Shown here: piece after piece, positions 13,356 to 49,837 of the stretch
How the letters are laid out: every line of letters begins with the position of its first letter
Position numbering within the stretch: position 1 is the stretch's first letter
From: Acidobacteriota bacterium
GTDB lineage: Bacteria > Acidobacteriota > Polarisedimenticolia > SMYD01
NCBI GenBank assembly: GCA_046757405.1
Contig: JBHHYE010000010.1
Coordinates: 19,386 to 83,385 of the forward strand
Direction: 5' to 3'
DNA: 64,000 nucleotides
The notes under the pieces: model-generated
Told to the model about the DNA's origin: nothing
The model's input: only the letters and a program-made list of their open reading frames with translations
Database searches by the model: none
Made by a program: the position numbers and the translations under genes

Positions 13356-13429
13356 CCCCGGAGGCGGTCTGAAGACAGCCGCCTGGAACGGTGGAAGGTC
13401 GTTTCCGGCGCGGGATGGGGAGGGCGGCT

Positions 13430-13912
13430 ATGGTGAAGACCCTGCAGGGGCAGTTGGATGGGCGAGGCTTGCGTTTCGGCCTGGTCTTGCCGCGTTTCAA
13501 CGAGGTTTTCGGGGCGCGGTTGTTGAGCGGGGCCGTGGACTGCCTGGTCCGCCACGGCGCCGCCGAGACAGACCTGACGGTGATCCGGGTTCCCGGGACG
13601 TTCGAGATTCCAGCCGCGGTGCACGCCTTGGTGGCGGCCCAGCAGGTGGATGCGGTGATCGCCCTGGGTGTCTTGATCCGCGGCGCGACCAGCCACTATG
13701 ACCATCTCGCCCTGGCCGTCAGCCGCCGCCTGGCCGAGGAGGCCTGCGGCGGCGGACCAGCCGTGGTCTATGGCATTGTGACCGCCGAGAATCAGGAGCA
13801 AGCCATGGAGCGCTGCGGCGGAAAGGTCGGCAACCGGGGCTGGGAAGCCGCCCTGGCCGCCATCGAGATGGGCCGGCTCCTGAACGAGCTGAACCAGGCC
13901 CGGGGGCGGTAA
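13430..13912 (+). CDS. ribH: 6,7-dimethyl-8-ribityllumazine synthase
   Basis: Start ATG 13430 (MVKTLQG). 'RFGLVLPRFNE', 'IRVPGTFEIP', 'DAVIALGVLIRGATSHYD'. Confidence 0.9.
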   Translation: MVKTLQGQLDGRGLRFGLVLPRFNEVFGARLLSGAVDCLVRHGAAETDLTVIRVPGTFEIPAAVHALVAAQQVDAVIALGVLIRGATSHYDHLALAVSRRLAEEACGGGPAVVYGIVTAENQEQAMERCGGKVGNRGWEAALAAIEMGRLLNELNQARGR

Positions 13913-13923
13913 GAGAGGGCTCG

Positions 13924-14346
13924 ATGGGAAACAGGCGCCGAGGACGGGAGATGGCGCTGCAGATCTTGTTCCAGGTGGACATCACCCGCGATCGCCCCGA
14001 GGAGGTTCTCAAGCGGTTCTGGCAGGATCGGGTGGCTCCGCCGCGGGTGCGGCGGTTCGTGGAAACCTTGACGCTGGGTTCCCTGCGGCACCAGGAAGAG
14101 ATCGACGCCATTATCTCCACGGCCGCAGAGCACTGGCGCCTGGAGCGCATGGCCACGGTCGACCGGAACCTGTTGCGGTTGGCCATCTACGAGATGCGCT
14201 ACCAGACGGAGACCCCGCCGGCGGTGGTCATTGACGAGGCCATCGAGGTGGCCCGCAAGTATGGGTCGGAGGATTCCGCTCCCTTCATCAACGGGATTCT
14301 GGATGCGGCCCGCCGCCTCGTTGAAATGCCCCGGGAAGAGACCTAG
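13924..14346 (+). CDS. nusB: Transcription antitermination factor NusB
   Basis: 'REMALQILFQVD', 'WRLERMATVDRNLLRLAIYEM'; conserved ribH-nusB pair. Confidence 0.9.
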   Translation: MGNRRRGREMALQILFQVDITRDRPEEVLKRFWQDRVAPPRVRRFVETLTLGSLRHQEEIDAIISTAAEHWRLERMATVDRNLLRLAIYEMRYQTETPPAVVIDEAIEVARKYGSEDSAPFINGILDAARRLVEMPREET

Positions 14347-14385
14347 ATTCGCCTGGCCCGTGGGTGAGGGCGTCTGGAGGGCGGT

Positions 14386-15339
14386 GTGAGCGCAGCGGGA
14401 ACCTCCTTCCATCGATCGGTGCTCGTCGTGGAGGACGAGGAGCTGTATCTGCGGGCGCTGGTCATGGATTTCGAGGGACGGGGTTACCGGGTCACGGCCT
14501 GCCGGGATCTGGAGAGCGGCGAATCGGCTTATCGCGAGATGATATCCCGGGGGAGCGGGCTGCTCCTGGTGATCGATCTGATCCAGCCGGGAGAGAATGG
14601 CGGATACCTGGGCGGACTGGATCTCCTCCGCAGGTTGCGGCCCGGGCCGGGCGTGGAAGTGGTCGTGCTGGCCGACAACGAGGCGGCGTGGCTCCAGCGG
14701 GCGGTCTCCAGCCTGGGGGCCGCTCGCCTGGTTCGCAAGCCGGACCTGAGGCGAACAGCGCCGGAGCATCTGGATCGCGCGGTTCAGGCTTTTCTGGCTG
14801 ATCTGTCCCAGCAGCCGCGAGAGGAGGACCGGCCGCTCCCGGCGCCGGTGAGCGACATCGGCGAGGCCGGCCTCCTGCTGGGCGCCCTGGAGGACCTTCG
14901 CCGGGCCCCTGACCGCGCCAGTGTCCTCCTGGTGGCGATGCGGCGCGCGGCGGATATGGCCTCCCGGGGCATTCTCTTCGATGTGGAGGGTGACCATTTG
15001 CGCAGTCTTGGAGGTTTTGGACTGGGCGACGGGATGGATGCGGCCACCCGCGACCGGATTCTCGAGCTCGACCAGGACACCCTCCCCGGACGCGCCTTCT
15101 GGTCTGCCCGGCTCCAGCGCGCCCGGCGCGGCGACCTGGCCGCGCTCATGCCCGATCCGCCCATGCCCCTGCCCGAGGAAGCCGTGGCGCTCCCCATCAT
15201 CGGGCCGGAAGGAGTGGCCGCTGTCCTCTACGCCGACACGGGCGGCGGAGAGGCTCCGTTCAAGGGGCTTCCCGTTCTCTCCGCCATGGCCGATGCGGTC
15301 AGCCTGGCCCTGGAGGGTGTGCAGGGGCGGTCCGGCTGA
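14386..15339 (+). CDS. Response-regulator receiver domain fused to a C-terminal GAF-like domain
   Basis: N-terminal REC fold ('VLVVEDEE..', phospho-acceptor-like D in 'LLLVIDLIQ', K in 'LVRKP'); C-terminal ~170 aa alpha/beta region with GAF-like pattern; first gene of the Che-like cluster. Confidence 0.55.
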   Translation: MSAAGTSFHRSVLVVEDEELYLRALVMDFEGRGYRVTACRDLESGESAYREMISRGSGLLLVIDLIQPGENGGYLGGLDLLRRLRPGPGVEVVVLADNEAAWLQRAVSSLGAARLVRKPDLRRTAPEHLDRAVQAFLADLSQQPREEDRPLPAPVSDIGEAGLLLGALEDLRRAPDRASVLLVAMRRAADMASRGILFDVEGDHLRSLGGFGLGDGMDAATRDRILELDQDTLPGRAFWSARLQRARRGDLAALMPDPPMPLPEEAVALPIIGPEGVAAVLYADTGGGEAPFKGLPVLSAMADAVSLALEGVQGRSG

Positions 15340-15450
15340 TCCTTGCGTCCCCCGGCAGGTTCCTCCCCATTTGAAGCGCGTGCCCCGGGGACTTATATAT
15401 TGCGGCATGCGGCGCATGCTGAGGACCATTCCCCGGGGCGGGAGGAACTG

Positions 15451-15825
15451 ATGCAGGTTCTGGTGGTCGATGACTCGCCGTCGATGCGGGCCTTCATCGC
15501 GGGCACTCTCGAGGCCGCGTTCGCGGCCCATGTGACGGAGTCCAGCAATGGCTTCGAGGCGCTCAAGGTTCTCCCCGGCAAGAGCTTCGACGTGATCATT
15601 GCCGACATCAACATGCCCGACATCAACGGGTTGGAGCTCCTCGGTTATTTGAAACAGCACCCCGCGTATTCCTCCATCCCGGTCGTGGTGGTCTCCACAG
15701 CGGTGAGCGATGGTGACCGCCAGCGCGGACTTGCGGCCGGGGCCGCGGCTTACATGAGCAAGCCACTCCAGCCCCAGGAGCTGGAGGACACGCTGCGCTC
15801 CCTCCTGGTCGTGCGGGACGACTGA
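15451..15825 (+). CDS. cheY: CheY-like single-domain response regulator
   Basis: GGAGG RBS before ATG 15451. 'VLVVDDSPSMR', 'DVIIADINMPDINGLEL', 'PVVVVST', 'YMSKP'. Confidence 0.85.
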   Translation: MQVLVVDDSPSMRAFIAGTLEAAFAAHVTESSNGFEALKVLPGKSFDVIIADINMPDINGLELLGYLKQHPAYSSIPVVVVSTAVSDGDRQRGLAAGAAAYMSKPLQPQELEDTLRSLLVVRDD

Positions 15826-15831
15826 GGCGCC

Positions 15832-17859
15832 ATGGAAGATCGGCGATCGAGTCGAGAGCAGGCCGAGTTTCTCGCCGAGGCGCAAGAACTCTTGGAGCGC
15901 CTGGGTGATGATTTGCAGAAGGCCGAGGCCGAGGCGGGCCGCGGCCCGGTCTCGATCCAGAGGCTGAACGGGATGTTCCGGGCCATCCATTCCCTCAAGG
16001 GCCTTGCGGGGATGATGGGCCGCTCGCGGCTGGTGGAGTTCACCCATCACCTCGAGGATTACATGGATCGCCTCCGCATGGGACAGGTAGAAATGAATCC
16101 GCAAGTGGTGAATCTCCTGTTCGAGGCCCACGAGCACCTGGAGCGACTGGTCGAGGGAAGGCCGGTTGATGAGCCCGCGCTGGGCGTCCTGGAGGGCCGG
16201 ATAGGCGGCCCGAAAGAGAGCGCCCAGGTTCCGGCCGCGGCCGCGGATCCTGATGCTCTCGCGGGTCTGGACCCACGGATACGGAACGCGCTGACTCGCT
16301 TCGAGGAACATCGCCTGCGGGAGAATCTTCAGGAAGGGCGGGAGATTTTCTTGGTTCATGTGAGTTTCTCCCTGGACACCTTCGATACCGAACTGCGGGA
16401 GCTGATCGAAAAGCTGAATTCCGGGGGCGAGGTCCTGAGCACGCTTCCCTCCATGAGCGCCGAAGAGGTTGCGGACAGACTGGCATTCGTTCTGCTCCTG
16501 GCCACGGCGTGGAGCGAGGAGCAAGTGAAGAAGGAAGCCGGCCGACCGGTGGTGCTGGAACGCTGGGTCGGGACCCGGGCGGAGCCGCCGGTGAACCCTG
16601 CCGCTCCCGCTCCTGCCGCCGCAGGGAGCCAGGAAGAGGATGGGGCGGTCGACGGACCGGCCTGGCTCGCCATGGGCAGCGTCCGGGTGGATCTGAAACG
16701 CCTAGACCGGATCATGAACTCGGTTGGCGAGCTGGTCTTGTTCAGAAAAGCGATCGGTTCCGTGGCGCGGAAACTGCTGGATCGCGAAGGAACCCATGCT
16801 CTGGGCCGGGACCTGGATCGTTCGACTCGGGATCTGGACAAGAGAATCCACGAGCTGCAGAAATCGGTGATCGGTGCGCGCATGGTGCCCATGAGCCAGA
16901 TCGTGGGGCGGCTCTCCCGGCTCGTCCGCAAGGTGTCCGCGCAGGCGGGAAAAAAGGTGGTCCTGGTGGCGCGGGGGGAGAGAACCGAGCTGGACAAGGT
17001 CATGATCGACCGCCTTTTCAGCCCTCTCATTCATCTGGTGCGGAATGCCATTGACCACGGTATTGAACCGCCCGCTGTCCGCCGCGCGGCAGGAAAGAAT
17101 GAAACGGGAACTCTGGAGCTGTCGGCCATCCAGGGCGGCAACTCGGTGCTTGTGACCCTGGCCGACGATGGCAGAGGCCTGGATGTGGAGGCGGTGCGCC
17201 AAGTCGCGGTGAGACAAGGGATCCTTGCCGCGGACACGGAGGTCGATCTGGAGGTGGCGCGGGAGCTGATCTTCCAGCCGGGATTTTCCTCCGCTGTTTC
17301 GGTCGATGAGGTGTCGGGGCGCGGTTTCGGTCTCGATGTGGTGCGCCGGGACATTGCGAGTTTGAGTGGGAGCGTGCGCTTGACGAGTCAGCCGGGCCAG
17401 GGCACCTGCGTCGAGCTCGAACTGCCCATCACGCTCGCCATCATCCAGTGCACACTGATCGGAGCGGGGCCATCGATGTTTGCGGTGCCTGTGACGTCCC
17501 TCGTGGAAACCTTGCGGTTCCGTCCCGGGCGGTTGGAAACCATCGCCGGAAGTCCGGTGATCCGCCTGCGTGGTGAGATCTTGCCGCTCGTCGATTTGCG
17601 CACTTACTCTCGGCTGGGACACCAGGCCTCTGGCGGTCTGGAGTTTGTCGTGGTCGCCCGCTGCGGAGAAAAAAAGCTCGCACTCGGGGTCGAGACCCTC
17701 AGCGGCCAGCAGGAGGTTGTCATCAAACCGGTCGACTCCCGGCTGGAGAATATCCCCGGCCTGGCCGGAGCCACGGAGATCGGCGAGAACCAGACCGCGC
17801 TGGTTCTCGATGTGACCTCACTCGGTGCGGATGTGCGGACCCTGAGCGGCGCGGCTTGA
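15832..17859 (+). CDS. cheA: Chemotaxis histidine kinase CheA
   Basis: HPt 'FRAIHSLKG', dimerisation domain, HATPase 'HLVRNAIDHGIE', 'DDGRGLD', 'GRGFGLDVV', C-terminal CheW-like domain. Confidence 0.9.
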   Translation: MEDRRSSREQAEFLAEAQELLERLGDDLQKAEAEAGRGPVSIQRLNGMFRAIHSLKGLAGMMGRSRLVEFTHHLEDYMDRLRMGQVEMNPQVVNLLFEAHEHLERLVEGRPVDEPALGVLEGRIGGPKESAQVPAAAADPDALAGLDPRIRNALTRFEEHRLRENLQEGREIFLVHVSFSLDTFDTELRELIEKLNSGGEVLSTLPSMSAEEVADRLAFVLLLATAWSEEQVKKEAGRPVVLERWVGTRAEPPVNPAAPAPAAAGSQEEDGAVDGPAWLAMGSVRVDLKRLDRIMNSVGELVLFRKAIGSVARKLLDREGTHALGRDLDRSTRDLDKRIHELQKSVIGARMVPMSQIVGRLSRLVRKVSAQAGKKVVLVARGERTELDKVMIDRLFSPLIHLVRNAIDHGIEPPAVRRAAGKNETGTLELSAIQGGNSVLVTLADDGRGLDVEAVRQVAVRQGILAADTEVDLEVARELIFQPGFSSAVSVDEVSGRGFGLDVVRRDIASLSGSVRLTSQPGQGTCVELELPITLAIIQCTLIGAGPSMFAVPVTSLVETLRFRPGRLETIAGSPVIRLRGEILPLVDLRTYSRLGHQASGGLEFVVVARCGEKKLALGVETLSGQQEVVIKPVDSRLENIPGLAGATEIGENQTALVLDVTSLGADVRTLSGAA

Positions 17860-17884
17860 GGCGCGCGGCCGTCGGAGGCCTGGC

Positions 17885-18406
17885 ATGAGCGGTATGGGAA
17901 AGGCAGCAGAGACACCGTCACCGGGGCTGGACCCGCTGACGGCGGGCACGGGCGGTGGCGGGCCGAACCGGGCCGCGGAAGCCGGTCCCCGCCAGTTTCT
18001 CACCTTTTGCCTCGCAGGCGAGCGCTACGGGATCATCATCGACAGCATCGTCGAGATACTCAAGTACAGGCAATCGACTCCCATCCCCAGGGCACCGGAG
18101 GTGGTGCATGGCATTGTCTCGCTGCGGGGCCATATCGTGACGGTGATCGATGGACGCTTGCGGCTCGGGCATTCCAAGGCCCAGGTTGGCCCGGCTTCAC
18201 GCATCATCGTTGTCCGTGACGGTGCGGAGACGGTTGGAATCCTGGTGGATGAGGTCCTGCAGGTCATGAAGCTCCCGGCGGATGCCATCGGCCCGCCGCC
18301 AGAAACCGTGGCCCAGGCGGGTGAGTGTGGGATTCTCGGCGTCTGCGATACAAGGCAGGAATCGATTCTCATTCTCCTGGACGTGCATGAGTTCTTGAAG
18401 GTTTAG
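17885..18406 (+). CDS. cheW: Chemotaxis coupling protein CheW
   Basis: 'FLTFCLAGERYGI', 'VHGIVSLRGHIVTVIDGR', 'GILVDEV'. Confidence 0.9.
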   Translation: MSGMGKAAETPSPGLDPLTAGTGGGGPNRAAEAGPRQFLTFCLAGERYGIIIDSIVEILKYRQSTPIPRAPEVVHGIVSLRGHIVTVIDGRLRLGHSKAQVGPASRIIVVRDGAETVGILVDEVLQVMKLPADAIGPPPETVAQAGECGILGVCDTRQESILILLDVHEFLKV

Positions 18407-18415
18407 GAGGGAACG

Positions 18416-19312
18416 GTGGACAGAACATTGCTCATCGGGTGCCCGGCGTGCGGCCGGCGGTATCGATTCGACGCCCAGCGCTTCGGAACTACCGGAATCA
18501 GAATCCGTTGTCGTTTCTGCCAGGAGATCATGCGAGTGGAGATCAGCCAGGAGGAGACGACCGGCTCGGGCCCGGACTCTCCCGCTCCGGAACCAGGGCA
18601 GCCGGGACCCTTCTCCGCCGCGCCGGACCCGGTGGAGGCGGAGCCTGGCGCCCTGGTGGCTGACAGCGAAGGATCTGTCCGGTCGACGGTGAGCGAGACG
18701 CTGCGCGCGTCGGGCTATCTGGTTGATGAAGTCGAGAACGGGGTGGAAGTCCGGCGCTTCGTGGCGGTTCACCGGCCGCAGGTCGTTTTTCTGAATGTCT
18801 TTCTTCCCCACGTGCTGGGTGTCACTCTCTGCTCCGAGATCAAACGACATCCGGAGCTGTCGAAAACCCGGGTCATCCTGGTGGGGTCCCTCTACCGCCG
18901 CGATCGGTTCATGCGGGACCCCAGGGATCTCTACGGGGCGGACGGTTTTCTGGATGCCAACGGCTCGCCGGAAGAAGTGCGCCAGCGGGTTCGCGATCTG
19001 GCTGAAACGCTGAAGCCTGTCACGGGGCCGGGCGAAATGGATGGATCCGGCGATGCCCTTGAAGAGCTCAGGCGGCTGGCGCGGATCGTGGCCGGTGACA
19101 TCATCCTTTACAATCCCGAACGGGCGGAGGAGGAGATTGCGAGCGGCCGGTTCTTTGACACTTTCGCGGAGGAAATCCGCGAGGGGGAAGCGCTGGTGAA
19201 CCGCCGCTTTCCGGATATCGCGGATGGAGGGTCTCTTTATCATGAAACCCTCCGGGAAGCGGTCGTGCAGCATTCGGCGGCGGCCGGCATCCCGAGCCCT
19301 GTGGGTCGCTAG
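18416..19312 (+). CDS. MJ0042-type zinc-ribbon + receiver (REC)-like domain protein
   Basis: GTG start after a GGAGG RBS. N-terminal 'CPACGRRYRF..IRCRFCQEIM' double-CxxC zinc ribbon; disordered linker; REC-like fold ('GALVADSEGSVR', 'VVFLNVFLP', 'ILVGS'). Confidence 0.55.
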   Translation: MDRTLLIGCPACGRRYRFDAQRFGTTGIRIRCRFCQEIMRVEISQEETTGSGPDSPAPEPGQPGPFSAAPDPVEAEPGALVADSEGSVRSTVSETLRASGYLVDEVENGVEVRRFVAVHRPQVVFLNVFLPHVLGVTLCSEIKRHPELSKTRVILVGSLYRRDRFMRDPRDLYGADGFLDANGSPEEVRQRVRDLAETLKPVTGPGEMDGSGDALEELRRLARIVAGDIILYNPERAEEEIASGRFFDTFAEEIREGEALVNRRFPDIADGGSLYHETLREAVVQHSAAAGIPSPVGR

Positions 19313-19318
19313 CCGGCC

Positions 19319-21526
19319 ATGGGAACGCCCGGCGATCATGGCATGATCCTGGATGGGCGGGAGAGCATCGGGGAGCTCATCTCGCTTCTGGGACACTCGA
19401 ACCTCCGGGTCCGCCGCTCCGCGATTGCAGCCCTGGTGGAGAGGGAGCCCTCTGAAACCCTTCCGGGCGTGCTGGCGGCCCTGGGGGATCAGGAGAACGC
19501 CGCCGCCCGCAGCGCAGCGGGCGATGTCTTGCTGCGGTACGGGCAGCGTATCCTGGAACCTTTGACCCGCACCCTGGATCCGGATGGCCACCGGGACCGG
19601 ACCATCCAGCTCCTGGATATTCTGGCGTGTATCCCGGCCCGGGCCACCGTCAAGGCCGTGATTCCTCTGGCTTCCCATCCCGACCCGTCGGTGGCCGCCA
19701 GTGCCATCAGCTGCCTCGGGACCCTGCGCGATCCTTCATCGGTTCCGACCCTGCTGGAAGTCTTGGACAGCCAGAAGCGCTGGCAAACGTTCTATGCCAT
19801 CGATGCGCTTGGAGAAGTGGGGCATGCGGCTGCGGTGAACCGCCTGGTGCCGCTGATCAAGGATCCCTATTACCGCAAGGCGGTGCTCCGGGCACTGGGA
19901 AAGATTGGCGATGAGTCAGCGGTTGGTCCCCTGGTGGAGGCCCTGGCGGCGGGGACGCCGCCTCCTGACCGGACAGCGCTGGCGTCTCTCGACGAAATGG
20001 TGGAGCGCTCCCGGAGTTCGCTGGGGCGGGAGAGCTTGATCGCCCGGATCCGTGGAGAGCTGCGGATCCGGCAGGATGCGGCCCTCATCGACGGTCTGGC
20101 CCAGCTATTGCGGGAGGGCGCCATCGAGACGCGATGCCAGGCGGCGCGCGTCCTCGGCTGGATGGGCGGCAAGGAGGTGGCGGCGCCACTGGTCCATGCG
20201 TGTGGCGAGCCTTTTCTCGCGGACACGGCGGCCCAGGCTCTCCAGAGTCTCGAAGGCGGGCATGTGGAGGAGATCCTGGATGCGATGCGCTCGGTGGCTC
20301 TTTCGGGACTTGCGCTGTGCCGGCTCATCAAGATCCTGGCGGGTACGCTGACCGAGCGGACGGAACAGTTCTTCATCATGGCGCTTGAACACGAGGAGGA
20401 AGACGTCCGGCAGGCCGCGGCGGCGGCGCTGGCCCGGGCTGCTGAAGGTCGGTACCTGGAGATCCTCGTGCGCGTCCTGGGCGACCCGGCGCCCTTGGTG
20501 TCCAGCGAGGCGGTGAAAGGACTGACGGCGATTGCCGAGCGGTCGGAAGCCCTGCGCGAGCACGTGGCCGGCCGGGTCGAGGGGTTGACGGCCTCGCCTT
20601 CCCCCGAGATGCGGGGAGCCGCCCTCCAGGTCATCGCTAGACTGCATGGAGATGGAGCCGGGGAGATCCTCGACCTGGCCCTGCATGACCCCGTGGCCGT
20701 CGTCCGGCGGACCGCTGTGGCCTTGCTGGGGGAGGATCCCGATCCCGATCGCCTGTGGCGGCTCAGCGTGGCGCTGGCCGATGAGGATTCGCGGGTGCGG
20801 GAAGAAGCGGTTCACGCGGTGGGCCGTCTGCAAGACCAGAGAGCCCGCGGCGTTCTCCTCTCTTCCTTGCACGATCGGAGCCCCTGGGTCAGGTGCCGCG
20901 CGGCGCGGGCCCTGTCCGACCATCCCGCGGCGGAAGTCCGGGTGGCCTTGGAGCAGGTGGTCCGGAACGATATCTTGCCGGTCAAGGTTGCCGCCATCGA
21001 AGCTCTTGCATCACTCTGGCCCGCGACCCGGGACTTCTTGGTCGAAGGGACCCGGAGCCAGGAAGCGGAAATCCGGCGGGCCTGTCTGGTCGCCCTGGCG
21101 CGCCGGGAAGGGGACGCGCCCATGGAGGTCCTCGCGGGCGCTCTCGAGGACCCGGCCTGGCCAGTGCGTTGCGCGGCGGCGGAAGCCCTGGGAGCAAGCG
21201 GAGACGCGGCGGCCTTCGAGCCGGTCTCCCGAGCTCTGGATCGGGAGAGGGATGGCTCCGTGCGCCGGGCCCTGATCGGCGCTCTTTACCACTTGGATGC
21301 CGAATCGGCGTTGCCTTTTCTCATCGCCGGCCTGTCCGAGAAGGATATTGCCGATACGGCCGGAGAACTGCTGGTCCGCGGGCGAACTCTGTTTGCAGAC
21401 GAGCTCCGGGCCGAGTGGGCTTCGGAAATGGACCCGGCGATCCGGGAAGGGCTGGCGGTGGTCCTCGAGGAGGTCGGGAGGCGGGAAGCCCAGGGAACGG
21501 CGGCAGAAGAAGGCGGCCCGTCGTGA
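19319..21526 (+). CDS. HEAT/PBS-lyase-like repeat protein (735 aa)
   Basis: More than 12 tandem ~30-aa HEAT-like repeats ('VRRSAIAALV', 'VRCRAARALSDH', 'VRCAAAEALGASGD' etc.) embedded between cheW and cheR. Confidence 0.7.
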   Translation: MGTPGDHGMILDGRESIGELISLLGHSNLRVRRSAIAALVEREPSETLPGVLAALGDQENAAARSAAGDVLLRYGQRILEPLTRTLDPDGHRDRTIQLLDILACIPARATVKAVIPLASHPDPSVAASAISCLGTLRDPSSVPTLLEVLDSQKRWQTFYAIDALGEVGHAAAVNRLVPLIKDPYYRKAVLRALGKIGDESAVGPLVEALAAGTPPPDRTALASLDEMVERSRSSLGRESLIARIRGELRIRQDAALIDGLAQLLREGAIETRCQAARVLGWMGGKEVAAPLVHACGEPFLADTAAQALQSLEGGHVEEILDAMRSVALSGLALCRLIKILAGTLTERTEQFFIMALEHEEEDVRQAAAAALARAAEGRYLEILVRVLGDPAPLVSSEAVKGLTAIAERSEALREHVAGRVEGLTASPSPEMRGAALQVIARLHGDGAGEILDLALHDPVAVVRRTAVALLGEDPDPDRLWRLSVALADEDSRVREEAVHAVGRLQDQRARGVLLSSLHDRSPWVRCRAARALSDHPAAEVRVALEQVVRNDILPVKVAAIEALASLWPATRDFLVEGTRSQEAEIRRACLVALARREGDAPMEVLAGALEDPAWPVRCAAAEALGASGDAAAFEPVSRALDRERDGSVRRALIGALYHLDAESALPFLIAGLSEKDIADTAGELLVRGRTLFADELRAEWASEMDPAIREGLAVVLEEVGRREAQGTAAEEGGPS

Positions 21527-22395
21527 ACGAGTCCGCGAACCTCTCCTTTTCGGCCGACCTGGCACCGCCGAAGCTTTCCGAGGACAGCCTCAGGCTGGTC
21601 CTGGAGCTGCTCAACCGGCGCTTCGGCTTCCAGTTCCATCGCTCATCCCAGGAGATGGCCCGGACCCGGATTGCGCGTCACATGGAGGAACTGGGCCTCG
21701 CCGATCTTCGTGATTATTACTACCGGTTGTTGTATGACCCGGAAGGGGACGCCGAACTGGACAATCTCTTCGAGCTCTTGGTCAACAACGAGACCTATTT
21801 CTTTCGCGAGGAGAGCCAGATCTGGACCTTTGCGGATGAAATTCTCTCCCAGCGTCTCACGGCCCGGCCAGAGAGCCGGATTCGGGTCTGGTGTGCAGGA
21901 TGTTCCACGGGCGAGGAACCTTATTCTCTGGCCATCGCAACTCTCGAACGCCAGGGGCCCAGGGCGAACCGGGTGGAGATCTTCGGCTCGGACCAGTCCA
22001 GAAAGGCCCTCGATCGCGGCCGCATGGGCAACTTCAGCTCGTTTGCTTTCAGGAGCACCCCCCCTGAACTGCGAAAAAAATACTTCGAGGCGGAGAGCAA
22101 GAACCGCTGGCGAATCGTTCCCGCGGTCCGGCGGATGGTGCAGTTCGGGAGATGCAATCTTCTGGGGTCGGCGGGAGATTTGCCTCTGGTCAAGTTTGAC
22201 GCCATCTTTTGCCGCAACGTGCTGATCTACTTTGATCGAGAGGCCAGGCGCCAGGTGATCAATCTCTTCTATGAGCGGCTGGCGGAGGGCGGATACCTCT
22301 TCCTGGGCCACTCGGAGTCGCTCCTGGATCTTTCGGACCGCTTCGAGTTCGCCCAACTGAGCCAGGACGTTGCCTACCGGCGGGACGCGCCATGA
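21523..22395 (+). CDS. cheR: Chemotaxis protein methyltransferase CheR
   Basis: GTG start overlaps the HEAT-protein stop (GTGA). 'ETYFFRE', 'RVWCAGCSTGEEPYSLAI', 'FDAIFCRNVLIYFD'. Confidence 0.9.
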   Translation: MNESANLSFSADLAPPKLSEDSLRLVLELLNRRFGFQFHRSSQEMARTRIARHMEELGLADLRDYYYRLLYDPEGDAELDNLFELLVNNETYFFREESQIWTFADEILSQRLTARPESRIRVWCAGCSTGEEPYSLAIATLERQGPRANRVEIFGSDQSRKALDRGRMGNFSSFAFRSTPPELRKKYFEAESKNRWRIVPAVRRMVQFGRCNLLGSAGDLPLVKFDAIFCRNVLIYFDREARRQVINLFYERLAEGGYLFLGHSESLLDLSDRFEFAQLSQDVAYRRDAP

Positions 22396-23528
22396 GACGC
22401 GTTCTCATCGTCGATGACTCGGCTTTCAACCGGGTGACCCTGGAGCGCGCCCTCCGGGATGTTCCCGGGATTCAGGTCGTGGGCACCGCAGTGGACGGTT
22501 ATGATGCCATTCGCCAGATCCGGCGGTGGCAACCGCACGTCATGACCCTCGACCTGGAAATGCCGCGGATGGATGGTCTGAGCCTGATTCGCTGGGTCAT
22601 GCAGCGCCACCCGCTGCCCATCCTGGTGGTGACGTCACGGGAATCAAATTACTCCCTTTTCGAGGCGCTGGAGCTCGGAGCGCTTGATTTTGTCCTCAAG
22701 CCGGGAAGGGTCAGCCCGGATCTGGCTTCCATTCGCCAGGATCTGATCACCAAGATCCATCAGGTCGTGGATATTCCCATGCACGCGCGCCGGTACCGGC
22801 CGGGGGATCACCGGACAGCCGCGGACACGCCGCCAGCGCCGGCGGTTTGCCTGGAACCACTGGCCGCGGGCCATGTGCCCCGGGTGATTGCCATGGTGGC
22901 ATCCACCGGCGGGCCGGCTGCTCTGCAAGTCATTCTCAGAGCGCTGCCCGGGACGTTCCCGATTCCCATCATCGTGGTCCAGCACATGCCGTCCCATTTC
23001 ACGCAGGCCTTTGCCAGACGTCTGGACGAGACCGCTTCCTTGAAGGTGGTGGAGGCCAGGAAAGGCGAGCAGGTCCTTCCGGGCATGGTCTTGATCGCGC
23101 CGGGCGGCTCCCACATGATGCTGGTCGAGGGGAGCCAGCGAAGCTTGTGGATTGCGCTCCGCCCGGGCCTCGAGACGGATCCGTACATTCCCTCCGGCGA
23201 CCGACTCCTGGCATCGGTGGCGGCGGTTTGCGGGGACGCTGGAGCGGGGGTGATCCTCACCGGCATGGGACAGGACGGATGCCAGGGCCTGAAACGGTTG
23301 CGCGAAGCGGGCGGGCTCACCATGGCCGAATCCGAGGAGTCGGCCGTGGTCTACGGCATGCCGCGGCATGCCCTCGCGGCCGGAGCGGTGCAGGAGATCA
23401 TGCCTCTGGAGCAGATCGTGGCCCAGATCAAACTGATGGGCCAGGCGGCGGCATCCGCCGCTCTTGGCGGACCGGCGACCCAGGCTACGGATCGATTCGC
23501 CGCCCAGGAGAGAAGGGAGAACGCATGA
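22392..23528 (+). CDS. cheB: Chemotaxis response regulator protein-glutamate methylesterase CheB
   Basis: N-terminal REC ('VLIVDDSAFNR', 'MTLDLEMPRMDG'); C-terminal methylesterase ('ASTGGPAAL', 'VVQHMP', 'GMGQDG'). Confidence 0.9.
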   Translation: MRRVLIVDDSAFNRVTLERALRDVPGIQVVGTAVDGYDAIRQIRRWQPHVMTLDLEMPRMDGLSLIRWVMQRHPLPILVVTSRESNYSLFEALELGALDFVLKPGRVSPDLASIRQDLITKIHQVVDIPMHARRYRPGDHRTAADTPPAPAVCLEPLAAGHVPRVIAMVASTGGPAALQVILRALPGTFPIPIIVVQHMPSHFTQAFARRLDETASLKVVEARKGEQVLPGMVLIAPGGSHMMLVEGSQRSLWIALRPGLETDPYIPSGDRLLASVAAVCGDAGAGVILTGMGQDGCQGLKRLREAGGLTMAESEESAVVYGMPRHALAAGAVQEIMPLEQIVAQIKLMGQAAASAALGGPATQATDRFAAQERRENA

Positions 23529-24394
23529 CGAGAGAGTACTGGAGAGGGAGCCTGGCCCCTACGGCTTACCTCGATGCCGCTCTGCAGAGCGTGCGGGACG
23601 CCTGCGAAAAACTGGTTGAGGAAAACCGTGTTCTCCGAGCCGATCCCAAGCGGCCGGTTGGCATTCAGCCGGAGCAGATGAAGGTCCTGGAGGAACGGAT
23701 CGCGCAGCTGGAAGCCGAAAACCGCGGGCTCCACCAAGCCGTTGTGTCTGCGGTGGATCAGCAGGCGTCCCGTCAGGAGGACCTCCTCGCCAGTCTCTAC
23801 GTGGCCGGCTTCCAGTTGCATCGCTCCCTGGACATGGATGCGGTGGTGTCGTCGATGAAGGAAATTCTCATCAACCTGGTCGGCGCAGCGAGCTTTCTCA
23901 TTTATCTCCATGATGCCCGGGATCGCAGCCTCATCCGGATCGCTGATGAAAGTAACGCTGCGCCGCGACTCCGGCGCATGGCCGTGGGCGAAGGAATCCT
24001 GGGGGTGGTGGTCAAGACGGGGATTGCGTACTTTGACCAGGAATCGCCCCAGGGCGACTACCACAACCCGATCGCCTGCATCCCGCTCAGAGTCAAGACG
24101 GAGGTCGTGGGGCTCATCCAGATCTGCACCCTGCTGGTCCAGAAGGGCCAGCTCAATGCGCAGGATCACGAGTTGCTCTCCATGCTGGCGGAGCATGGCG
24201 GTATCGCCCTCCTGGCCGCGAGTCTTCACCGCCGGTACCGGAAGGAGGCGGAAGCGGAATCCCTGTGCTGGAGCGATGTGCTCCTCCCGTCCCTGGAATG
24301 CCCGGATGTGGACCCTGTCTTGAGAATCAGCGATGGCCAGGGGAACGGCGCGTCCAGCGCGGCCGGGACCACGGCTGGGGAGGAGAGGGGATGA
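23525..24394 (+). CDS. Coiled-coil + GAF-domain protein
   Basis: ATG overlaps the cheB stop (ATGA). N-terminal heptad coiled coil ('MKVLEERIAQLEAENRGL'); GAF-like core ('GILGVVVKTGIAYF', 'IPLRVKTEVVGLIQI'). Confidence 0.55.
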   Translation: MTREYWRGSLAPTAYLDAALQSVRDACEKLVEENRVLRADPKRPVGIQPEQMKVLEERIAQLEAENRGLHQAVVSAVDQQASRQEDLLASLYVAGFQLHRSLDMDAVVSSMKEILINLVGAASFLIYLHDARDRSLIRIADESNAAPRLRRMAVGEGILGVVVKTGIAYFDQESPQGDYHNPIACIPLRVKTEVVGLIQICTLLVQKGQLNAQDHELLSMLAEHGGIALLAASLHRRYRKEAEAESLCWSDVLLPSLECPDVDPVLRISDGQGNGASSAAGTTAGEERG

Positions 24395-24795
24395 TGGAGA
24401 CCCTGAATTTCCTGGTGGTGGAGGATTCACCGACCATGAGGCAACTCATCAGCTTTCCCCTGCGGCGGTTCTCCGATTGCCGCATCATCGAGGCGGTGGA
24501 CGGGGCGGACGCGCTGCGGAAACTGGCCTTCGAGCCGGTTGATATCGTCATCACCGACATCAACATGCCGATCATGGACGGCTTGAAGCTCGTGAGTGTG
24601 GTGCGCAGCAACCCGGGGACGGAGACTCTTCCCATCATCATCGTCACCACCGAGGGAGCCGAGGAGGACCGCCGGCGCGGGATGGCTCTGGGGGCGGATG
24701 CTTACGTGGCGAAGCCTATCGAGGGGGATGAGCTGATCCGAACGGTGACGGATGTCCTCCGGAAGCGCGGCCTGACCAGTCCGGCTGTGACTTGA
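24391..24795 (+). CDS. cheY: CheY-like single-domain response regulator (second copy)
   Basis: ATG overlaps the GAF stop (ATGA). 'FLVVEDSPTMR', 'DIVITDINMPIMDG', 'PIIIVTT', 'YVAKP'. Confidence 0.85.
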   Translation: MMETLNFLVVEDSPTMRQLISFPLRRFSDCRIIEAVDGADALRKLAFEPVDIVITDINMPIMDGLKLVSVVRSNPGTETLPIIIVTTEGAEEDRRRGMALGADAYVAKPIEGDELIRTVTDVLRKRGLTSPAVT

Positions 24796-24827
24796 CCGTT
24801 GCCAGGAGCCGCGCCTAACATCGGCGG

Positions 24828-25355
24828 GTGCCTCACCCCCGGAGAGTGGCTGCCTGTCTGGTCTCGATGATTCTCTTGGGGTGGACTGCGTGTGGTTACC
24901 GCCTGGTGGGCCGGGGCGGATTTCTCCCTCCGGGCATCCAGTCGATCGGCGTGCCCACCTTCGCGAACCTCACCGACCGGCCGGAGCTGGAACAGCGAAT
25001 TTCCGAGGAGATCCTGACCCAGCTGCAGACCCGAACCCGGCGTCGCACGTCGGCGGTGGGAACGGGAGTGGATGCCGTCCTCAGGGGAGAAGTCACGAGT
25101 TTTCGTTCGGTGCCTGTCGAGTTCAATCCGGACGGCCGGGCGCGCACGATCGAGGTGACCATCACGGTGCGGGCCAGCCTGACCTCCACCGCGGACCACC
25201 AGGTGATCTGGGCCGCCGATCATTTTGTCTTTCGCGAGAGTTACCCGGTCGGGGAACAGGCCATCCAGTTCGTGGACCAGGAAACCTTGGCGCTGGAAAG
25301 CGTGGCCGGAGACTTTGCCGAGGCGGTGGTCACGTCGATCCTGGAAGGATTCTAG
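24828..25355 (+). CDS. lptE: LPS-assembly lipoprotein LptE-like
   Basis: Signal + 'LLGWTACGYRLVGRG' (LptE-like 'CGFHLRG' N-terminus); conserved position immediately upstream of holA. Confidence 0.65.
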   Translation: MPHPRRVAACLVSMILLGWTACGYRLVGRGGFLPPGIQSIGVPTFANLTDRPELEQRISEEILTQLQTRTRRRTSAVGTGVDAVLRGEVTSFRSVPVEFNPDGRARTIEVTITVRASLTSTADHQVIWAADHFVFRESYPVGEQAIQFVDQETLALESVAGDFAEAVVTSILEGF

Positions 25356-25361
25356 CCGGCG

Positions 25362-26417
25362 GTGAATGAGTCCGGTTTCACGGTGCTGGACGCGGCCCTG
25401 GGACAGGCTCCTCCGGAGTCTCTCTACCTCCTGGTCGGAGCCAACCTGTGGGAGCGAGAGCGCTGTCTTGAAAGACTCCAGCGCGCGGTTCTGGGTGATG
25501 GCGGTCTTCTGGGTTTCACCCAGAGCCGAGCCGGGGACGGCCGGGTCGCGGACCTGCTGGACGCGGCCCGGACGCTGCCCATGGGCGGGGGACGCCGCCT
25601 CATCGTCCTCAAGGATTGTGAGGCGCTGGAGCGGGAGGATCTGGAACAGCTCGCCGCCTACGCCGTTCATCCGCAGGAAACCACCTGTCTTGTCCTCGTG
25701 GCGGATGCGCTCCCTTCGACCCGGAAGACCACGAAGATCCTGTACCGGCAAGGTGTGACGGTGAAGTGCCCCCTCCTCCGTGCCCACGAGATTCCCAGGT
25801 GGATGGCCTCCGTGATCCGGCGCCGCGGGTTCAGCCATGACCCGGGGGTTCCCGAGATCCTGGTCGAGACGCTGGGCCACGACCAGGCAACCCTGGTGGC
25901 CGGCCTGGAGACGATCGCCCTCTATCTGGGCGGGAAATCGGCGCAGAGGATCACCCCTTCCATCGTGAATGCCGTTCTCGTGCCCATGGCCCATGGCACG
26001 GTCTGGGAATTCATCGAGGCCCTGGAGGAAAAAAATGCTCCGCTGGCGCTGGCGAGGCTGGGCTCGATGCTGGACCTGGGCGAGTCTGTCGAGTCTCTCC
26101 TCCGCCTGGTGACGCGCAGCCGGAAGCAGCTCCTGGCGGGAGTCGCAGCCCGGCAGGAGGGGGGCGGGGAGGAGGCCGTTCTCGAGGCGATGGGAGTCCA
26201 TCCCCGGGCGCGAGCCGTGCCAAGGGTGCGCCGGGCGATTCTGAGCCGCCTGGCGCGGCACACCCAGGACGAGCTGGTCCACGGGCTGGACCGGGTGCTG
26301 GACGCCGACTCCCAGATGAAAGGGGGCGGCCCGGGGAATCCGGACGTGGTCCTCACCCGCCTGGTTCTGGACCTGTGCCGGGCCGGGTCATTTCCGGGGG
26401 CCCGGACGGGCGCTTGA
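25362..26417 (+). CDS. holA: DNA polymerase III delta subunit
   Basis: GTG start; 'LYLLVGANLWERERCLE', delta-subunit clamp-loader fold pattern; lptE-holA synteny. Confidence 0.8.
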   Translation: MNESGFTVLDAALGQAPPESLYLLVGANLWERERCLERLQRAVLGDGGLLGFTQSRAGDGRVADLLDAARTLPMGGGRRLIVLKDCEALEREDLEQLAAYAVHPQETTCLVLVADALPSTRKTTKILYRQGVTVKCPLLRAHEIPRWMASVIRRRGFSHDPGVPEILVETLGHDQATLVAGLETIALYLGGKSAQRITPSIVNAVLVPMAHGTVWEFIEALEEKNAPLALARLGSMLDLGESVESLLRLVTRSRKQLLAGVAARQEGGGEEAVLEAMGVHPRARAVPRVRRAILSRLARHTQDELVHGLDRVLDADSQMKGGGPGNPDVVLTRLVLDLCRAGSFPGARTGA

Positions 26418-38713: not shown

Positions 38714-39595
38714 TCAGGAACCGCTTTCGATCTCCGAGCGGAGCTCATCGAGAATGTCCTGGAGCGCCTGGATGAGCTCCTTGCGGTCGACGGTTTCACG
38801 TTCCGCGAATCTGAGGGTCAAGGAGTAGGGGCGATCCGCCGTTTTGAAGCGGAAGGTATAGCCGGATGTAGAGGCGCCTCCCCCGGCGGGCCGGCTGGAC
38901 GCTCCCCTTCCAGAGGGCTTTCTCTCACCTGGCCGGAGGAGTTTCCGGAGATCGTCGCGGCTCAACTGCTCCTTGACGATGGTCTCCACCATCTGTTCCA
39001 TGGCGGTTTCATCAGGAAGCCGGCTGATCTCGAGCAGAATGGAACGACTCAAGATATTGGCGCGGCGGGCCAGCCTGCGAATGCTGGCGGGGACCGTGGA
39101 CAGGGAGAGGCTCTCCGTGATGGACGTTCGGGATCGCCCGAGCTTTCTGGCAATTTCCTCGTGGGTGAAGTGGAATCTTTGCTGCAGCTGGAGGAGCGCA
39201 TCGGCCTCCTCGAAGGCGGTCAAGTCCCGCCGCTGGATATTCTCGACCAGGGAGATTTCCAGACAGCCCCGCTCATCGGCCTCCACCTCGATACAGGGGA
39301 TCCGTGTCAGGCCGGCCTTGCAGGCCGCCCGGTAACGGCGTTCTCCGGCGATGATCTCGAAACGGTCTCCCTTGGGGCGCACGAGAATCGGCTCGAGGAT
39401 CCCCTTCTCTTGAATAGAGGCGACCAGCTCCTGGATGCCGGAGAATTCCCGCCGGGGCTGATTGGGGCCGGGATCGACCAGGTCCAGGGGGATCTGCCGC
39501 CCGATGGTTCTTTCGGGACGAGAGGTGAGATGGTCCACGTAATGCTCGTCATGTCGCATTCTCTTGGTATCGGGCAGTCCTCTGAGCTTAGCCAC
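38714..39595 (-). CDS. parB: Chromosome partitioning protein ParB/Spo0J
   Basis: GTG start; 'ILEPILVRP..FEIIAGERRYRAA', HTH 'THEEIARKLGRSRTSI'. Confidence 0.9.
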   Translation of the reverse strand: MAKLRGLPDTKRMRHDEHYVDHLTSRPERTIGRQIPLDLVDPGPNQPRREFSGIQELVASIQEKGILEPILVRPKGDRFEIIAGERRYRAACKAGLTRIPCIEVEADERGCLEISLVENIQRRDLTAFEEADALLQLQQRFHFTHEEIARKLGRSRTSITESLSLSTVPASIRRLARRANILSRSILLEISRLPDETAMEQMVETIVKEQLSRDDLRKLLRPGERKPSGRGASSRPAGGGASTSGYTFRFKTADRPYSLTLRFAERETVDRKELIQALQDILDELRSEIESGS

Positions 39596-40343
39596 GGGTG
39601 ATGACCTCCTCGGAGAGCTTGTAGTACTCCATGGCGCCGGTGGAGTTGGGAGCGAATGTGAAGATCGATTGCTTGTACGCGGGGCTCTCCTCGAGCCGCA
39701 CGTTCTTGGAAATCACCGTCTGGAAGACCTTCTCCTTGAACACTTCCTGAATGCGCTTGCGGATGTCCCGTCCCAGCACGGTCCGGCGGTCATGCAGAGT
39801 GATGACCACGCCGAGGATCTCCAGGGCAGGGTTCGGCCGCTGGCGGATCTTGTCGATAGTCTCCAGAAGGTCGTCGGTTCCCTCCAGGGCGTAATAGGAC
39901 GACTGAATCGGAATGATCGTATGGGTGGAGGCCACCAGGGCATTCACCGTCAGGAGCCCTAGGGTCGGAGGGGTGTCGATGACGATGTGATCGTAGTCGG
40001 GAACGACCGACTCCAGGCGATCCTTGAGCCGGAAGTGGCCGTCGAATTCCGCCACCATGCGGCTCTCGAACTTGGCCAGGGAAATGCGAGCGGGAGCCAG
40101 ATCCAGGTAGAGGATCGGCGTTTTCCGGATCACCTGGCGCAGGTTCTTCTCGGGTTCGGTCAGCGCTTCGTAAACTGAGGTCTCGATTTCCTCCAGATCC
40201 AGGTAAGAAAGCGTGCAGTTCGCCTGGGGATCGAGATCAACGAGCAACGTCTTGAGGCCGCGCTGTGCGATGGCGGCGGCAAGGTTAATCGCTGTTGTCG
40301 TCTTACCGACACCACCCTTCTGATTGGCAATCGTGAGGATCAT
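39588..40343 (-). CDS. parA: Chromosome partitioning ATPase ParA/Soj
   Basis: Start at 'MILTIANQKGGVGKTTT' (deviant Walker A). My direct line count put the start 1 nt higher than the ORF-track coordinates (the two disagree by 1 nt in this region); the ORF-track value is reported. Confidence 0.85.
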   Translation of the reverse strand: MILTIANQKGGVGKTTTAINLAAAIAQRGLKTLLVDLDPQANCTLSYLDLEEIETSVYEALTEPEKNLRQVIRKTPILYLDLAPARISLAKFESRMVAEFDGHFRLKDRLESVVPDYDHIVIDTPPTLGLLTVNALVASTHTIIPIQSSYYALEGTDDLLETIDKIRQRPNPALEILGVVITLHDRRTVLGRDIRKRIQEVFKEKVFQTVISKNVRLEESPAYKQSIFTFAPNSTGAMEYYKLSEEVITRG

Positions 40344-40413
40344 GCGAGGGAACGGCCCCGGCGGTCGAAGTGGGAGACGCACATCAACGACGCCTCTTTT
40401 TCCGGAACGGGTA

Positions 40414-49629: not shown

Positions 49630-49837
49630 CGGCATTCTTCCCCAGTCATAATAGATAAGAGGCGTTACCTGGAAGTTCAAGTCAACCGGAGACGGGGCGC
49701 ATGGGGGCCTGGAAGCCTCTCCAGTAGCTTGAATCATCTAACGGTCGTGTTTGCAATAGGTTACAGGACGCCTTCGTTCCTGTGCAGGTTGTAGAAACCG
49801 TTTTCAGTTCAGATATTTCGCTGCCTGGAACACAACT

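Follow-up and report, generated by a model that had tools for sequence, protein, structure and literature searches.

A RomX-like domain behind a zinc ribbon and a receiver fold in a conserved chemosensory gene cluster of an Acidobacteriota bacterium, and its possible connection with MglA

We analysed a stretch of 64,000 nucleotides from an Acidobacteriota bacterium (GenBank assembly GCA_046757405.1, contig JBHHYE010000010.1, positions 19,386 to 83,385 of the forward strand; hereafter the window, 65% G+C) and, within it, three genes for which the initial annotation had proposed an N-terminal zinc ribbon: A (18416-19312), B (54228-54734) and C (58175-58573). The three open reading frames (ORFs) are all present at these positions. 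Gene A encodes a three-module cytoplasmic protein in which an MJ0042-type ribbon and a flexible linker are followed by a receiver fold and by a three-helix bundle homologous to RomX, a Myxococcus xanthus protein that binds the GTP form of MglA. The gene is a constant member of a chemosensory cluster of one kind, found from Acidobacteriota to Myxococcota. Our proposal, to which we give a probability of about 0.5, is that A acts as an adaptor between this chemosensory system and MglA. We have little doubt about the assignments of domains and cluster, taken together, on which the proposal builds. The features of A are the following.

18416-19312, forward strand: gene A, zinc ribbon, pseudo-receiver and RomX-like domain; ORF of 298 aa
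18428-18538, forward strand: MJ0042-type zinc ribbon, residues 5-41 (C9-x2-C12 ... C32-x2-C35)
18539-18646, forward strand: Pro/Ala-rich disordered linker, residues 42-77 (AlphaFold2 predicted local distance difference test, pLDDT, of 52-54 for residues 51-70)
18647-19012, forward strand: receiver fold without the phosphorylation chemistry, residues 78-199 (D83, S84, N127, S158, A181)
19049-19285, forward strand: RomX-like three-helix bundle, residues 212-290 (R220, R223 and D228, equivalent to RomX R11, R14 and D19)

The relationship with RomX was found at the level of both sequence and fold. When protein A was compared with the PDB sequences by phmmer, Myxococcus RomX (8zna) appeared among the receiver matches, over residues 218-285 of A and with E=4.3e-4. 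A profile made from 19 family segments of the C-terminal domain reached 8zna with E=3.4e-17 (65.4 bits, RomX residues 3-77 of 95), and the next PDB matches of this same profile had E-values of only ~0.2. Foldseek with the whole A model recovered receiver domains only, and for this reason the C-terminal domain was modelled and searched by itself. Its AlphaFold2 model (pLDDT 89.9) consists of three main helices, and its top PDB match was 8zna, with probability 1.00, a template modelling (TM) score of 0.62/0.63 and a root-mean-square deviation of 2.7 Å, all matches besides this one having probabilities of 0.33 or lower. The Foldseek E-value of the 8zna match was just 0.022, as expected of a small helical domain. 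Pfam and NCBIfam hold no model for the RomX-like domain of A.

Residue conservation was evaluated in a census of 86 sequences (82 of them unique), made up of the A homologue taken from the window and from 85 further loci. R220, R223 and D228 are invariant in 86/86, and Y232 and an EG...R motif are likewise invariant. In RomX, helix 1 binds MglA-GTP; the R11A/R14A substitutions abolished both this binding and the exchange activity, and D19A abolished the exchange activity, its binding being impossible to measure (preprint 10.1101/2024.02.20.581209). A paper of 2026 gives a dissociation constant of ~1.7 uM for RomX and MglA-GTP and argues that RomX is an effector and not a guanine nucleotide exchange factor (PMC13408092). 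From the invariance of the helix-1 residues R220, R223 and D228, together with the presence of an MglA orthologue in the window, we infer that the bundle of A may bind MglA-GTP, a prediction to which we assign slightly less than an even chance.

The RomX-like domain is widespread, with 3155 cluster representatives at E<=1e-3. It occurs alone, in proteins of 75-160 aa, after a ribbon and a receiver, or as tandem copies after a receiver. A receiver with one to five RomX-like domains is a recurrent architecture, and the proteins with two to five tandem copies are 600-990 aa long; on such repeats Pfam gives a weak 'Actin-fragmin kinase' match, which is probably spurious.

Protein A is identical (100%) to NCBI MFQ5669760.1, 'MAG: response regulator [Acidobacteriota bacterium]', where MAG stands for metagenome-assembled genome, and 'response regulator' is all that its NCBI label says; the nearest relatives carry titles such as Candidatus Polarisedimenticolia. 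The ribbon of A narrowly passes TIGR02098 MJ0042_CXXC of NCBIfam (21.7 bits, cutoff 20.9) and narrowly misses Pfam Zn_ribbon_4 (29.8 bits, cutoff 30.3). Its cysteines are conserved in the census, C32 and C35 in 86/86 sequences and C9 and C12 in 85/86, the sole exception being a sequence whose N-terminus was not recovered. The ribbon profile of the A family matched the GltJ ribbon 7zok with E=1.2e-11, and with E=8.3e-9 the entry 2nb9, which we take to be the ZitP ribbon of Caulobacter. The linker that follows varies in length and sequence across the family. The AlphaFold2 model of full-length A (mean pLDDT 85.9, predicted TM score, pTM, 0.53) shows a four-stranded ribbon (4-41), the disordered linker, the receiver fold (78-199) and helices over 214-290. 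The initial annotation had described A as a ribbon fused to a receiver; both parts are there, and the third domain, the RomX-like one, had been overlooked.

The receiver assignment is clear. A scores 44.5 bits against Response_reg (PF00072, cutoff 30.2), as the initial annotation had anticipated for the receiver-like regions of both A and B (43.2 bits in the latter), and the A model matches receiver structures in Foldseek with a target TM score of ~0.8. In the numbering of Escherichia coli CheY, a canonical receiver carries the acidic pair D12/D13, the acceptor D57, T87 and K109. When A is aligned to the receiver 3t6k, N127 occupies the acceptor position, S84 the second acidic position, S158 the Thr/Ser position and A181 that of the Lys, so that A lacks the canonical set of a phosphorylatable receiver. 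The initial annotation had asked whether the receivers keep the acceptor Asp and the T/K switch residues; in A the Asp and the Lys are gone, and S158 stands at the Thr/Ser position. Since Asn replaces the acceptor Asp and Ala replaces the Lys, the receiver of A in this Acidobacteriota lineage is, judged by its residues, a pseudo-receiver. In the family as a whole, the acceptor position is Asp in 75/86 sequences and Asn in all 8 of the 8 from Acidobacteriota, the Lys position is Lys in 56/86 and Ala or Gly in the Acidobacteriota clade, and the acidic pair is degenerate almost everywhere (H/N/D followed by E/S/P). The segment R-x-P-x2-LYGAD (residues 167-176) is specific to the family and at least 90% conserved, and it lies in the beta4-alpha4 region, the usual output face of receivers.

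These data bear on the reading of the initial annotation, in which A would be a conventional CheY-like regulator with a ribbon tag, phosphorylated by CheA and acting as a localisation adaptor. The receiver fold with its Response_reg score, the location of the gene between cheW and cheR/cheB, and the Asp and Lys kept in the family counts given above all speak for it. However, acceptor Asp and switch Lys are not kept in A, which therefore is not a conventional response regulator; the Asn and the Ala or Gly extend to all 8 Acidobacteriota sequences, most of the family has a degenerate metal-binding acidic pair, and a strongly conserved RomX-like domain would be left unaccounted for. We consider this reading improbable.

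Gene A lies in a chemosensory cluster, whose genes are the following.

14386-24795, forward strand: chemosensory cluster including A, co-directional genes with short gaps or overlaps
14386-15339, forward strand: REC-like (receiver-like) protein of 317 aa, first gene of the cluster (receiver below threshold, 26.4 bits)
15451-15825, forward strand: CheY (Pfam/NCBIfam)
15832-17859, forward strand: CheA (Pfam/NCBIfam)
17885-18406, forward strand: CheW (Pfam/NCBIfam), directly before A
19319-21526, forward strand: HEAT-repeat protein of 735 aa with PBS-lyase/NblB-like repeats, directly after A
21523-22395, forward strand: CheR (Pfam/NCBIfam)
22392-23528, forward strand: CheB (Pfam/NCBIfam)
23525-24394, forward strand: GAF protein (Pfam/NCBIfam)
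24391-24795, forward strand: second CheY (Pfam/NCBIfam)

The cluster includes no mcp gene, and no match to MCPsignal was obtained among the ORFs of the window that were scanned. A scan with one genome per species identified 236 genomes with a gene for a full-length relative of A, and the best 80 of these 236 were taken for the analysis of loci; they belong to Acidobacteriota, Geobacter, Geomonas, Geotalea, Geothermobacter, Desulfuromonadales, Myxococcota MAGs and MAGs labelled Spirochaetaceae. In ~70 of the 80 loci, tblastn with the Che proteins of the window located CheA..CheW upstream of the A-type gene, and HEAT (+1.4 kb), CheR (+3 kb) and CheB (+4 kb) downstream of it. The order CheA..CheW..A..HEAT..CheR..CheB spans Acidobacteriota, Geobacterales, Desulfuromonadales and Myxococcota, and the HEAT gene stands immediately 3' of the A-type gene in nearly all loci. 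The exceptions are few, mostly loci of Myxococcota or of MAGs labelled 'Deltaproteobacteria' in which the gene lies near nusB and most che genes are missing; loci L032, L061 and L065 are of this kind. The gene order of the window is repeated in L001, L003 and L004 and, with ribH-nusB and lptE-holA on its flanks, is met again around A homologues of 46-54% identity. A 'Deltaproteobacteria' MAG whose A homologue is 30% identical has the same order plus two mcp genes. A is thus a fixed component of a cluster of the type (PATAN/REC)-CheY-CheA-CheW-A-HEAT-CheR-CheB-GAF-CheY.

The surroundings of the cluster are also conserved. In the region 13391-26417 of the window the whole che cluster is set between ribH-nusB and lptE-holA-(dnaE), and this frame is kept from Acidobacteriota to the 'Deltaproteobacteria' MAG. 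The counterparts of the first cluster gene are a 571-aa PATAN(DUF4388)-REC-GAF protein in Geobacter and a 646-aa PatA_N protein in another MAG; the PATAN domain of this gene appears to have been lost in the window.

The cluster of Geobacter sp. OR-1 reads PATAN-REC-GAF, CheY, CheA, AAA ATPase, CheW, CheY, CheW, A homologue, HEAT, CheR, CheB, GAF, CheY, and its CheA-ATPase-CheW arrangement matches GSU2222-GSU2221-GSU2220 of G. sulfurreducens. The latter genes, reported as CheA-ATPase-CheW, include esnC and esnB, needed for electrode colonisation, and the Esn genes of G. sulfurreducens work with a distant methyl-accepting chemotaxis protein of class 40H. Tran et al. (2008) named the mcp-less cluster the 'beta group', stated that it is conserved in delta-Proteobacteria, M. 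xanthus among them, and that its function is unknown, gave preliminary hints that it controls the extracellular matrix, and made no mention of HEAT or zinc-ribbon genes. Che8 (MXAN_4751-4759, with 4754 and 4755 unlisted) is the one mcp-less cluster of M. xanthus whose order matches; it is reported to be conserved in Anaeromyxobacter and G. sulfurreducens and is still without a known function. From gene order and these papers, the cluster of the window is the probable counterpart of the Geobacter beta-group/Esn cluster (GSU2212-2224) and of M. xanthus Che8, neither M. xanthus nor G. sulfurreducens being represented among the loci retrieved. The gap in the published gene list makes MXAN_4754 and MXAN_4755 candidates for the HEAT and A-type genes of Che8.

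The initial annotation had also named a Che-like pathway and an MglA-like GTPase in the window, and both are real. The genes around mglA, all on the reverse strand, are listed here.

60510-62126, reverse strand: MglA orthologue (residues 1-195) with a mostly disordered extension of ~340 residues; 538 aa
59631-60467, reverse strand: conserved ORF of 278 aa, function unknown; ATGA overlap with the next gene at 59634-59631
58570-59634, reverse strand: conserved ORF of 354 aa from Met80; ATGA overlap with C at 58573-58570
58175-58573, reverse strand: gene C, 132 aa, with an MJ0042 ribbon (58472-58573), a disordered middle and an amphipathic C-terminal helix (58184-58219)

The MglA assignment is supported by a phmmer match to M. 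xanthus MglA (5ymx) with E=1e-81 over residues 3-192 and by the presence of the TVPGQ motif; a gene for MglB was not encountered in the window. Canonical MglA has ~195 aa, and the extension of the window protein is acidic and Pro-rich. An orthologue in a related MAG (L088), 86% identical, has a similar extension, and both share the motifs IGW.E..LEE.LD.MDAEEI.GLLEEV, SLESFL and a terminal ..P..L...G....CTLT.RL; that gene (152-1579 of L088) is uncalled in the source annotation of the MAG. A scan for promoters and terminators from mglA to the next gene gave results no better than shuffled sequences.

On these elements we base the following model. The RomX-like bundle of A would bind the GTP form of MglA, and the ribbon and the pseudo-receiver would be docking surfaces for proteins; possible ligands are an MglB-like protein, the product of the neighbouring HEAT-repeat gene or the CheA/CheW array. 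In this way A would tether MglA-GTP to the chemosensory complex, or free it from there, and the Che system would be able to act on cell polarity or surface motility. A docking role for the ribbon is inferred because the GltJ ribbon, to whose family the ribbons of the window belong, is a protein-interaction module of the polarity machinery that binds MglB and its own linker (PMC11135422). RomX, for its part, binds the receiver domain of RomR (10.1101/2024.02.20.581209). Most Geobacterales retain the Asp, Ser and Lys of the receiver, and there the RomX module could be gated by CheA phosphorylation; for the Acidobacteriota clade, gating would have to do without phosphorylation of A itself and might, for instance, rely on the two CheYs or on the HEAT protein. 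The HEAT protein (19319-21526) is a candidate partner of A, since its gene follows A in nearly every locus and the associated partner of M. xanthus Che7 is, according to the literature, a HEAT-repeat protein. RomR, which co-occurs with MglA/MglB, has been reported in Acidobacteria, Geobacter/Pelobacter and Myxococcales (PMC3441718), and the A family is found in the same lineages. Taken together, the data suggest that the che cluster with A acts on cell polarity.

Several observations weigh against this proposal. Within the window, mglA is 41 kb away from A, and at the 85 loci examined the +-10 kb around the A-type gene contained no MglA homologue (0/85), a result by which a simple operon argument for A and MglA was rejected. 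MglA E108, E111 and E115 have been modelled at the RomX interface (10.1101/2024.02.20.581209), and the MglA of the window has Q108, D111 and E115 at these positions. The full-length model, with its pTM of 0.53, does not define how the domains pack. A Leu-Arg pair and Trp87 on RomX helix 3 make the contact with the RomR receiver (10.1101/2024.02.20.581209); the Leu-Arg pair aligns with Val-Gln in A and Ala-Glu in the family consensus, so the interface between receiver and RomX seen in RomR-RomX is not obviously kept. Members of the large RomX-like family may have partners other than MglA, and the invariant Arg/Arg/Asp might be structural or serve a different ligand. Finally, with Asn at the acceptor position, the Che signal would have to reach A by some other route in this lineage.

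Some of these points, among them the 0/85 loci with mglA near A, the Gln at one of the three acidic interface positions and the size of the RomX-like family with its tandem arrays, would be accommodated if the bundle acted within the cluster, binding the receiver of A itself, the HEAT protein, the CheA/CheW array or, in Geobacter, the AAA ATPase, with an output unrelated to MglA, such as matrix or biofilm. The position of the HEAT gene immediately after A, the HEAT-repeat partner reported for Che7 and the binding of a receiver domain by RomX helix 3 are in line with such a role, and so are the published phenotypes: the Geobacter hints concern extracellular-matrix expression and electrode colonisation, and cheA8 has been connected with groEL regulation. 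On the other hand, the invariant residues of the A family are exactly those with which RomX helix 1 binds MglA-GTP, the helix-3 Arg needed for binding a receiver is not conserved, and the hosts are lineages reported to have RomR, which co-occurs with MglA/MglB. Moreover, this role is compatible with binding of MglA, since matrix or surface phenotypes could lie downstream of it. We regard it as the main alternative, possible and yet doubtful.

Gene C belongs to the neighbourhood of mglA. Its ribbon (C5-x2-C8 ... C28-x2-C31) passes both Zn_ribbon_4 (39.0 bits) and TIGR02098 (32.0-35.2 bits), and C matches 7zok by phmmer with E=6.6e-4. It has the signals of a coding sequence, with a G+C content of 0.77 at third codon positions (GC3), a ribosome-binding site GGGAGGA and the ATGA overlap with the upstream gene, and NCBI has a record for it (MFQ5669791.1, 'zinc-ribbon domain-containing protein'). 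A word-indexed homologue search with C returned only C itself, as a 99-aa call starting past the ribbon, and its orthologue was identified through synteny. In a related MAG the string of genes is Der, MglA with extension, a 240-aa protein, a 339-aa protein and a 105-aa ribbon protein, followed by the B orthologue and serS. This positional orthologue of C (L086/L088) is 28% identical; conserved in it are the ribbon, a DDLFELP/DLLFQIP motif and the terminal helix (GFLSWLGGLFRGS in the orthologue, GLLGWFSRLFRSQP in C). Given the order of this string, the features kept by the orthologue and the NCBI call, C is a real, conserved gene, and its position in the string directly downstream of mglA supports a link to MglA. 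The amphipathic terminal stretch that the initial annotation had pointed out, LLGWFSRLFRS, is present, with a hydrophobic moment of 0.72, and conserved in the positional orthologue; it is plausible as a membrane-targeting sequence. C is probably a membrane-tethered ribbon adaptor acting together with the genes adjacent to mglA, as far as its sequence and position tell.

The two genes between C and mglA have orthologues in L088 (1661-3399), of 240 aa with 37% identity for the 278-aa protein and of 339 aa with 54% identity for the 354-aa protein. Neither protein has a match in Pfam, NCBIfam or the PDB. The 354-aa protein has an RREFLRR near its start, resembling a twin-arginine signal. Elsewhere, the window encodes a protein with cNMP-binding (cyclic nucleotide monophosphate) and FHA domains (48769-49737, reverse strand) next to scpAB, and a ParA/MinD-like ATPase (39588-40382, reverse strand).

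Gene B is of a different nature.

54228-54734, reverse strand: gene B, canonical receiver with an N-terminal CPAC..C..H remnant; 168 aa, directly upstream of serS

The receiver of B keeps all canonical residues (E52, D53, D95, T122 and K148), the acceptor Asp (D95) and the T/K switch (T122, K148) included. Its cysteines do not form a double CxxC, only C7-x2-C10 (CPAC) with C18 and H23; no zinc ribbon was matched in B by Pfam or NCBIfam, and the ribbon hidden Markov model (HMM) of the A family gave E=6.9. The orthologues of B (200-243 aa; P0191-P0226) have a full MJ0042 ribbon, a second, single CPxCG knuckle and a receiver, and the start of B falls just before this second knuckle; a search of all frames upstream, over the ~100 bp that separate B from the divergent gene, showed nothing ribbon-like. 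B remains upstream of serS (4-nt overlap) despite the loss of the first ribbon, and the synteny with serS is also seen in L086. No che or mgl genes were found in the neighbourhood of B. By its residues, B is an ordinary phosphorylatable receiver that has lost its ribbon, and it stands outside the system described here.

With these results, the grouping made by the initial annotation can be revised. Of the three double-CxxC ribbons, those of A and C stand and that of B reduces to one CPAC knuckle without a library match. When the window was scanned in six frames, A and C accounted for the only 2 CxxC-x14-24-CxxC motifs (mean of shuffled sequences, 0.44), and the A-family ribbon HMM matches only A and C there; by the motif scan and the A-family HMMs, no further ribbon and no second RomX-like domain was found in the window. 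The idea of one family of adaptors, with A, B and C as paralogues, had to be abandoned, as A and the B orthologue are similar within the ribbon only and B lacks che/mgl context. The concern that the ribbons are generic N-terminal tags proved partly justified: the ribbon heads at least 3 unrelated architectures here. The suggested link with MglA and polarity is plausible, on a different basis from the one proposed, namely the RomX-like domain of A and the mglA-adjacent position of C and not the ribbon.

It could also be argued that the zinc ribbons bind nucleic acid and that A, B and C are small regulators of transcription or RNA. Zinc ribbons can do so, as a general statement in PMC11135422 recalls, and one source names the A homologue of Geobacter sp. 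OR-1 'putative transcriptional regulator ycf27'. However, the nearest solved ribbon, GltJ 7zok, is a protein-binding module, Pfam and NCBIfam find no DNA-binding output domain in A, B or C, and the ycf27 name reflects similarity of the receiver domain alone. We give very little credence to this explanation.

The combination of a zinc finger, a receiver and a RomX-like fold is already noted in the 2024 RomX preprint, the only place in the literature searched where 'RomX-like' occurs as a term. The same literature offered no description of a ribbon-REC-RomX protein encoded by the gene that is conserved between cheW and HEAT in the Che8/beta-group/Esn cluster, of the invariance of MglA-contact residues across phyla, or of an Acidobacteriota clade with a pseudo-receiver in an A-type protein, and a search on MJ0042 returned nothing relevant. 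Two fields have so far remained unconnected: that of M. xanthus polarity, where RomX holds MglA-GTP, and the chemosensory one, where the Che8/beta-group/Esn class has had no assigned function since 2007-2008 and no output. A RomX domain encoded between the cheW and HEAT genes, with invariant MglA-contact residues, gives a concrete hypothesis that is testable in G. sulfurreducens and M. xanthus. A bolder extension, which we put forward as speculative, is that Che8/beta-group/Esn systems have a built-in MglA-GTP-binding output through the ribbon-REC-RomX protein; this would be a second, Frz-independent route from chemoreceptors to the MglA polarity switch, from Myxococcota and Geobacterales to Acidobacteriota, with the Acidobacteriota receiver as a phosphorylation-independent scaffold. 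If this were true, the failure of Geobacter esn mutants in electrode colonisation would be explained by surface or pilus polarity and not by cyclic di-GMP. The Asp-to-Asn variant of the Acidobacteriota is a natural experiment on whether phosphorylation of an A-type receiver is needed. There is also a gap in annotation, as the RomX-like domain has ~3,000 representatives whose carriers are named 'response regulator' or 'zinc-ribbon domain-containing protein'.

Among the known systems, RomR/RomX of M. xanthus (8zna) is comparable to A in that a receiver is paired with a RomX three-helix bundle, R11, R14 and D19 are kept and the host has MglA. In A, however, both parts are in one chain with a ribbon in front, and the gene is within a che cluster. 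Compared with RomR, A lacks the RomR-type Pro-rich linker, the Glu-rich C-terminal domain and the acceptor Asp; compared with RomX, the helix-3 Arg for RomR binding is not kept. The same combination of domains as in A, likened by description, is that of the uncharacterised proteins such as A0A2N6E6P0 that Chakraborty and Gayathri (2024; 10.1101/2024.02.20.581209) found by Foldseek and described as a 'zinc finger/thioredoxin putative domain' with a receiver and a RomX-like fold; that work covers neither the genomic context nor a residue census, and it does not comment on the phosphorylation site of the receiver.

The ribbons of GltJ (AgmX, 7zok) and of 2nb9 are of the same MJ0042-type family as that of A and serve as N-terminal docking modules of polar or motility complexes; GltJ and ZitP, unlike A, are membrane proteins with other downstream domains. 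FrzS-type pseudo-receivers resemble A in that a protein of motility or polarity makes use of a receiver fold lacking the canonical phosphorylation chemistry, and M. xanthus FrzS (PDB 2gkg/2i6f) is among the sequence and fold matches of A. A has other substitutions and other partner domains than FrzS, and beyond the REC fold nothing points to common descent. The terminal segment of C recalls the C-terminal helices of MinD and FtsA, being likewise an amphipathic segment of ~11 residues with an xRLF-like core and a hydrophobic moment close to that of the FtsA helix (0.72 vs 0.78); C is otherwise unrelated to them. At the level of the cluster, the Geobacter beta group/Esn and M. xanthus Che8 have the core order and content seen in the window and no mcp gene within the cluster. 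The cluster of the window differs from that of Geobacter in having no AAA ATPase, no second CheW/CheY pair and no PATAN domain in its first gene, and it belongs to a different phylum.

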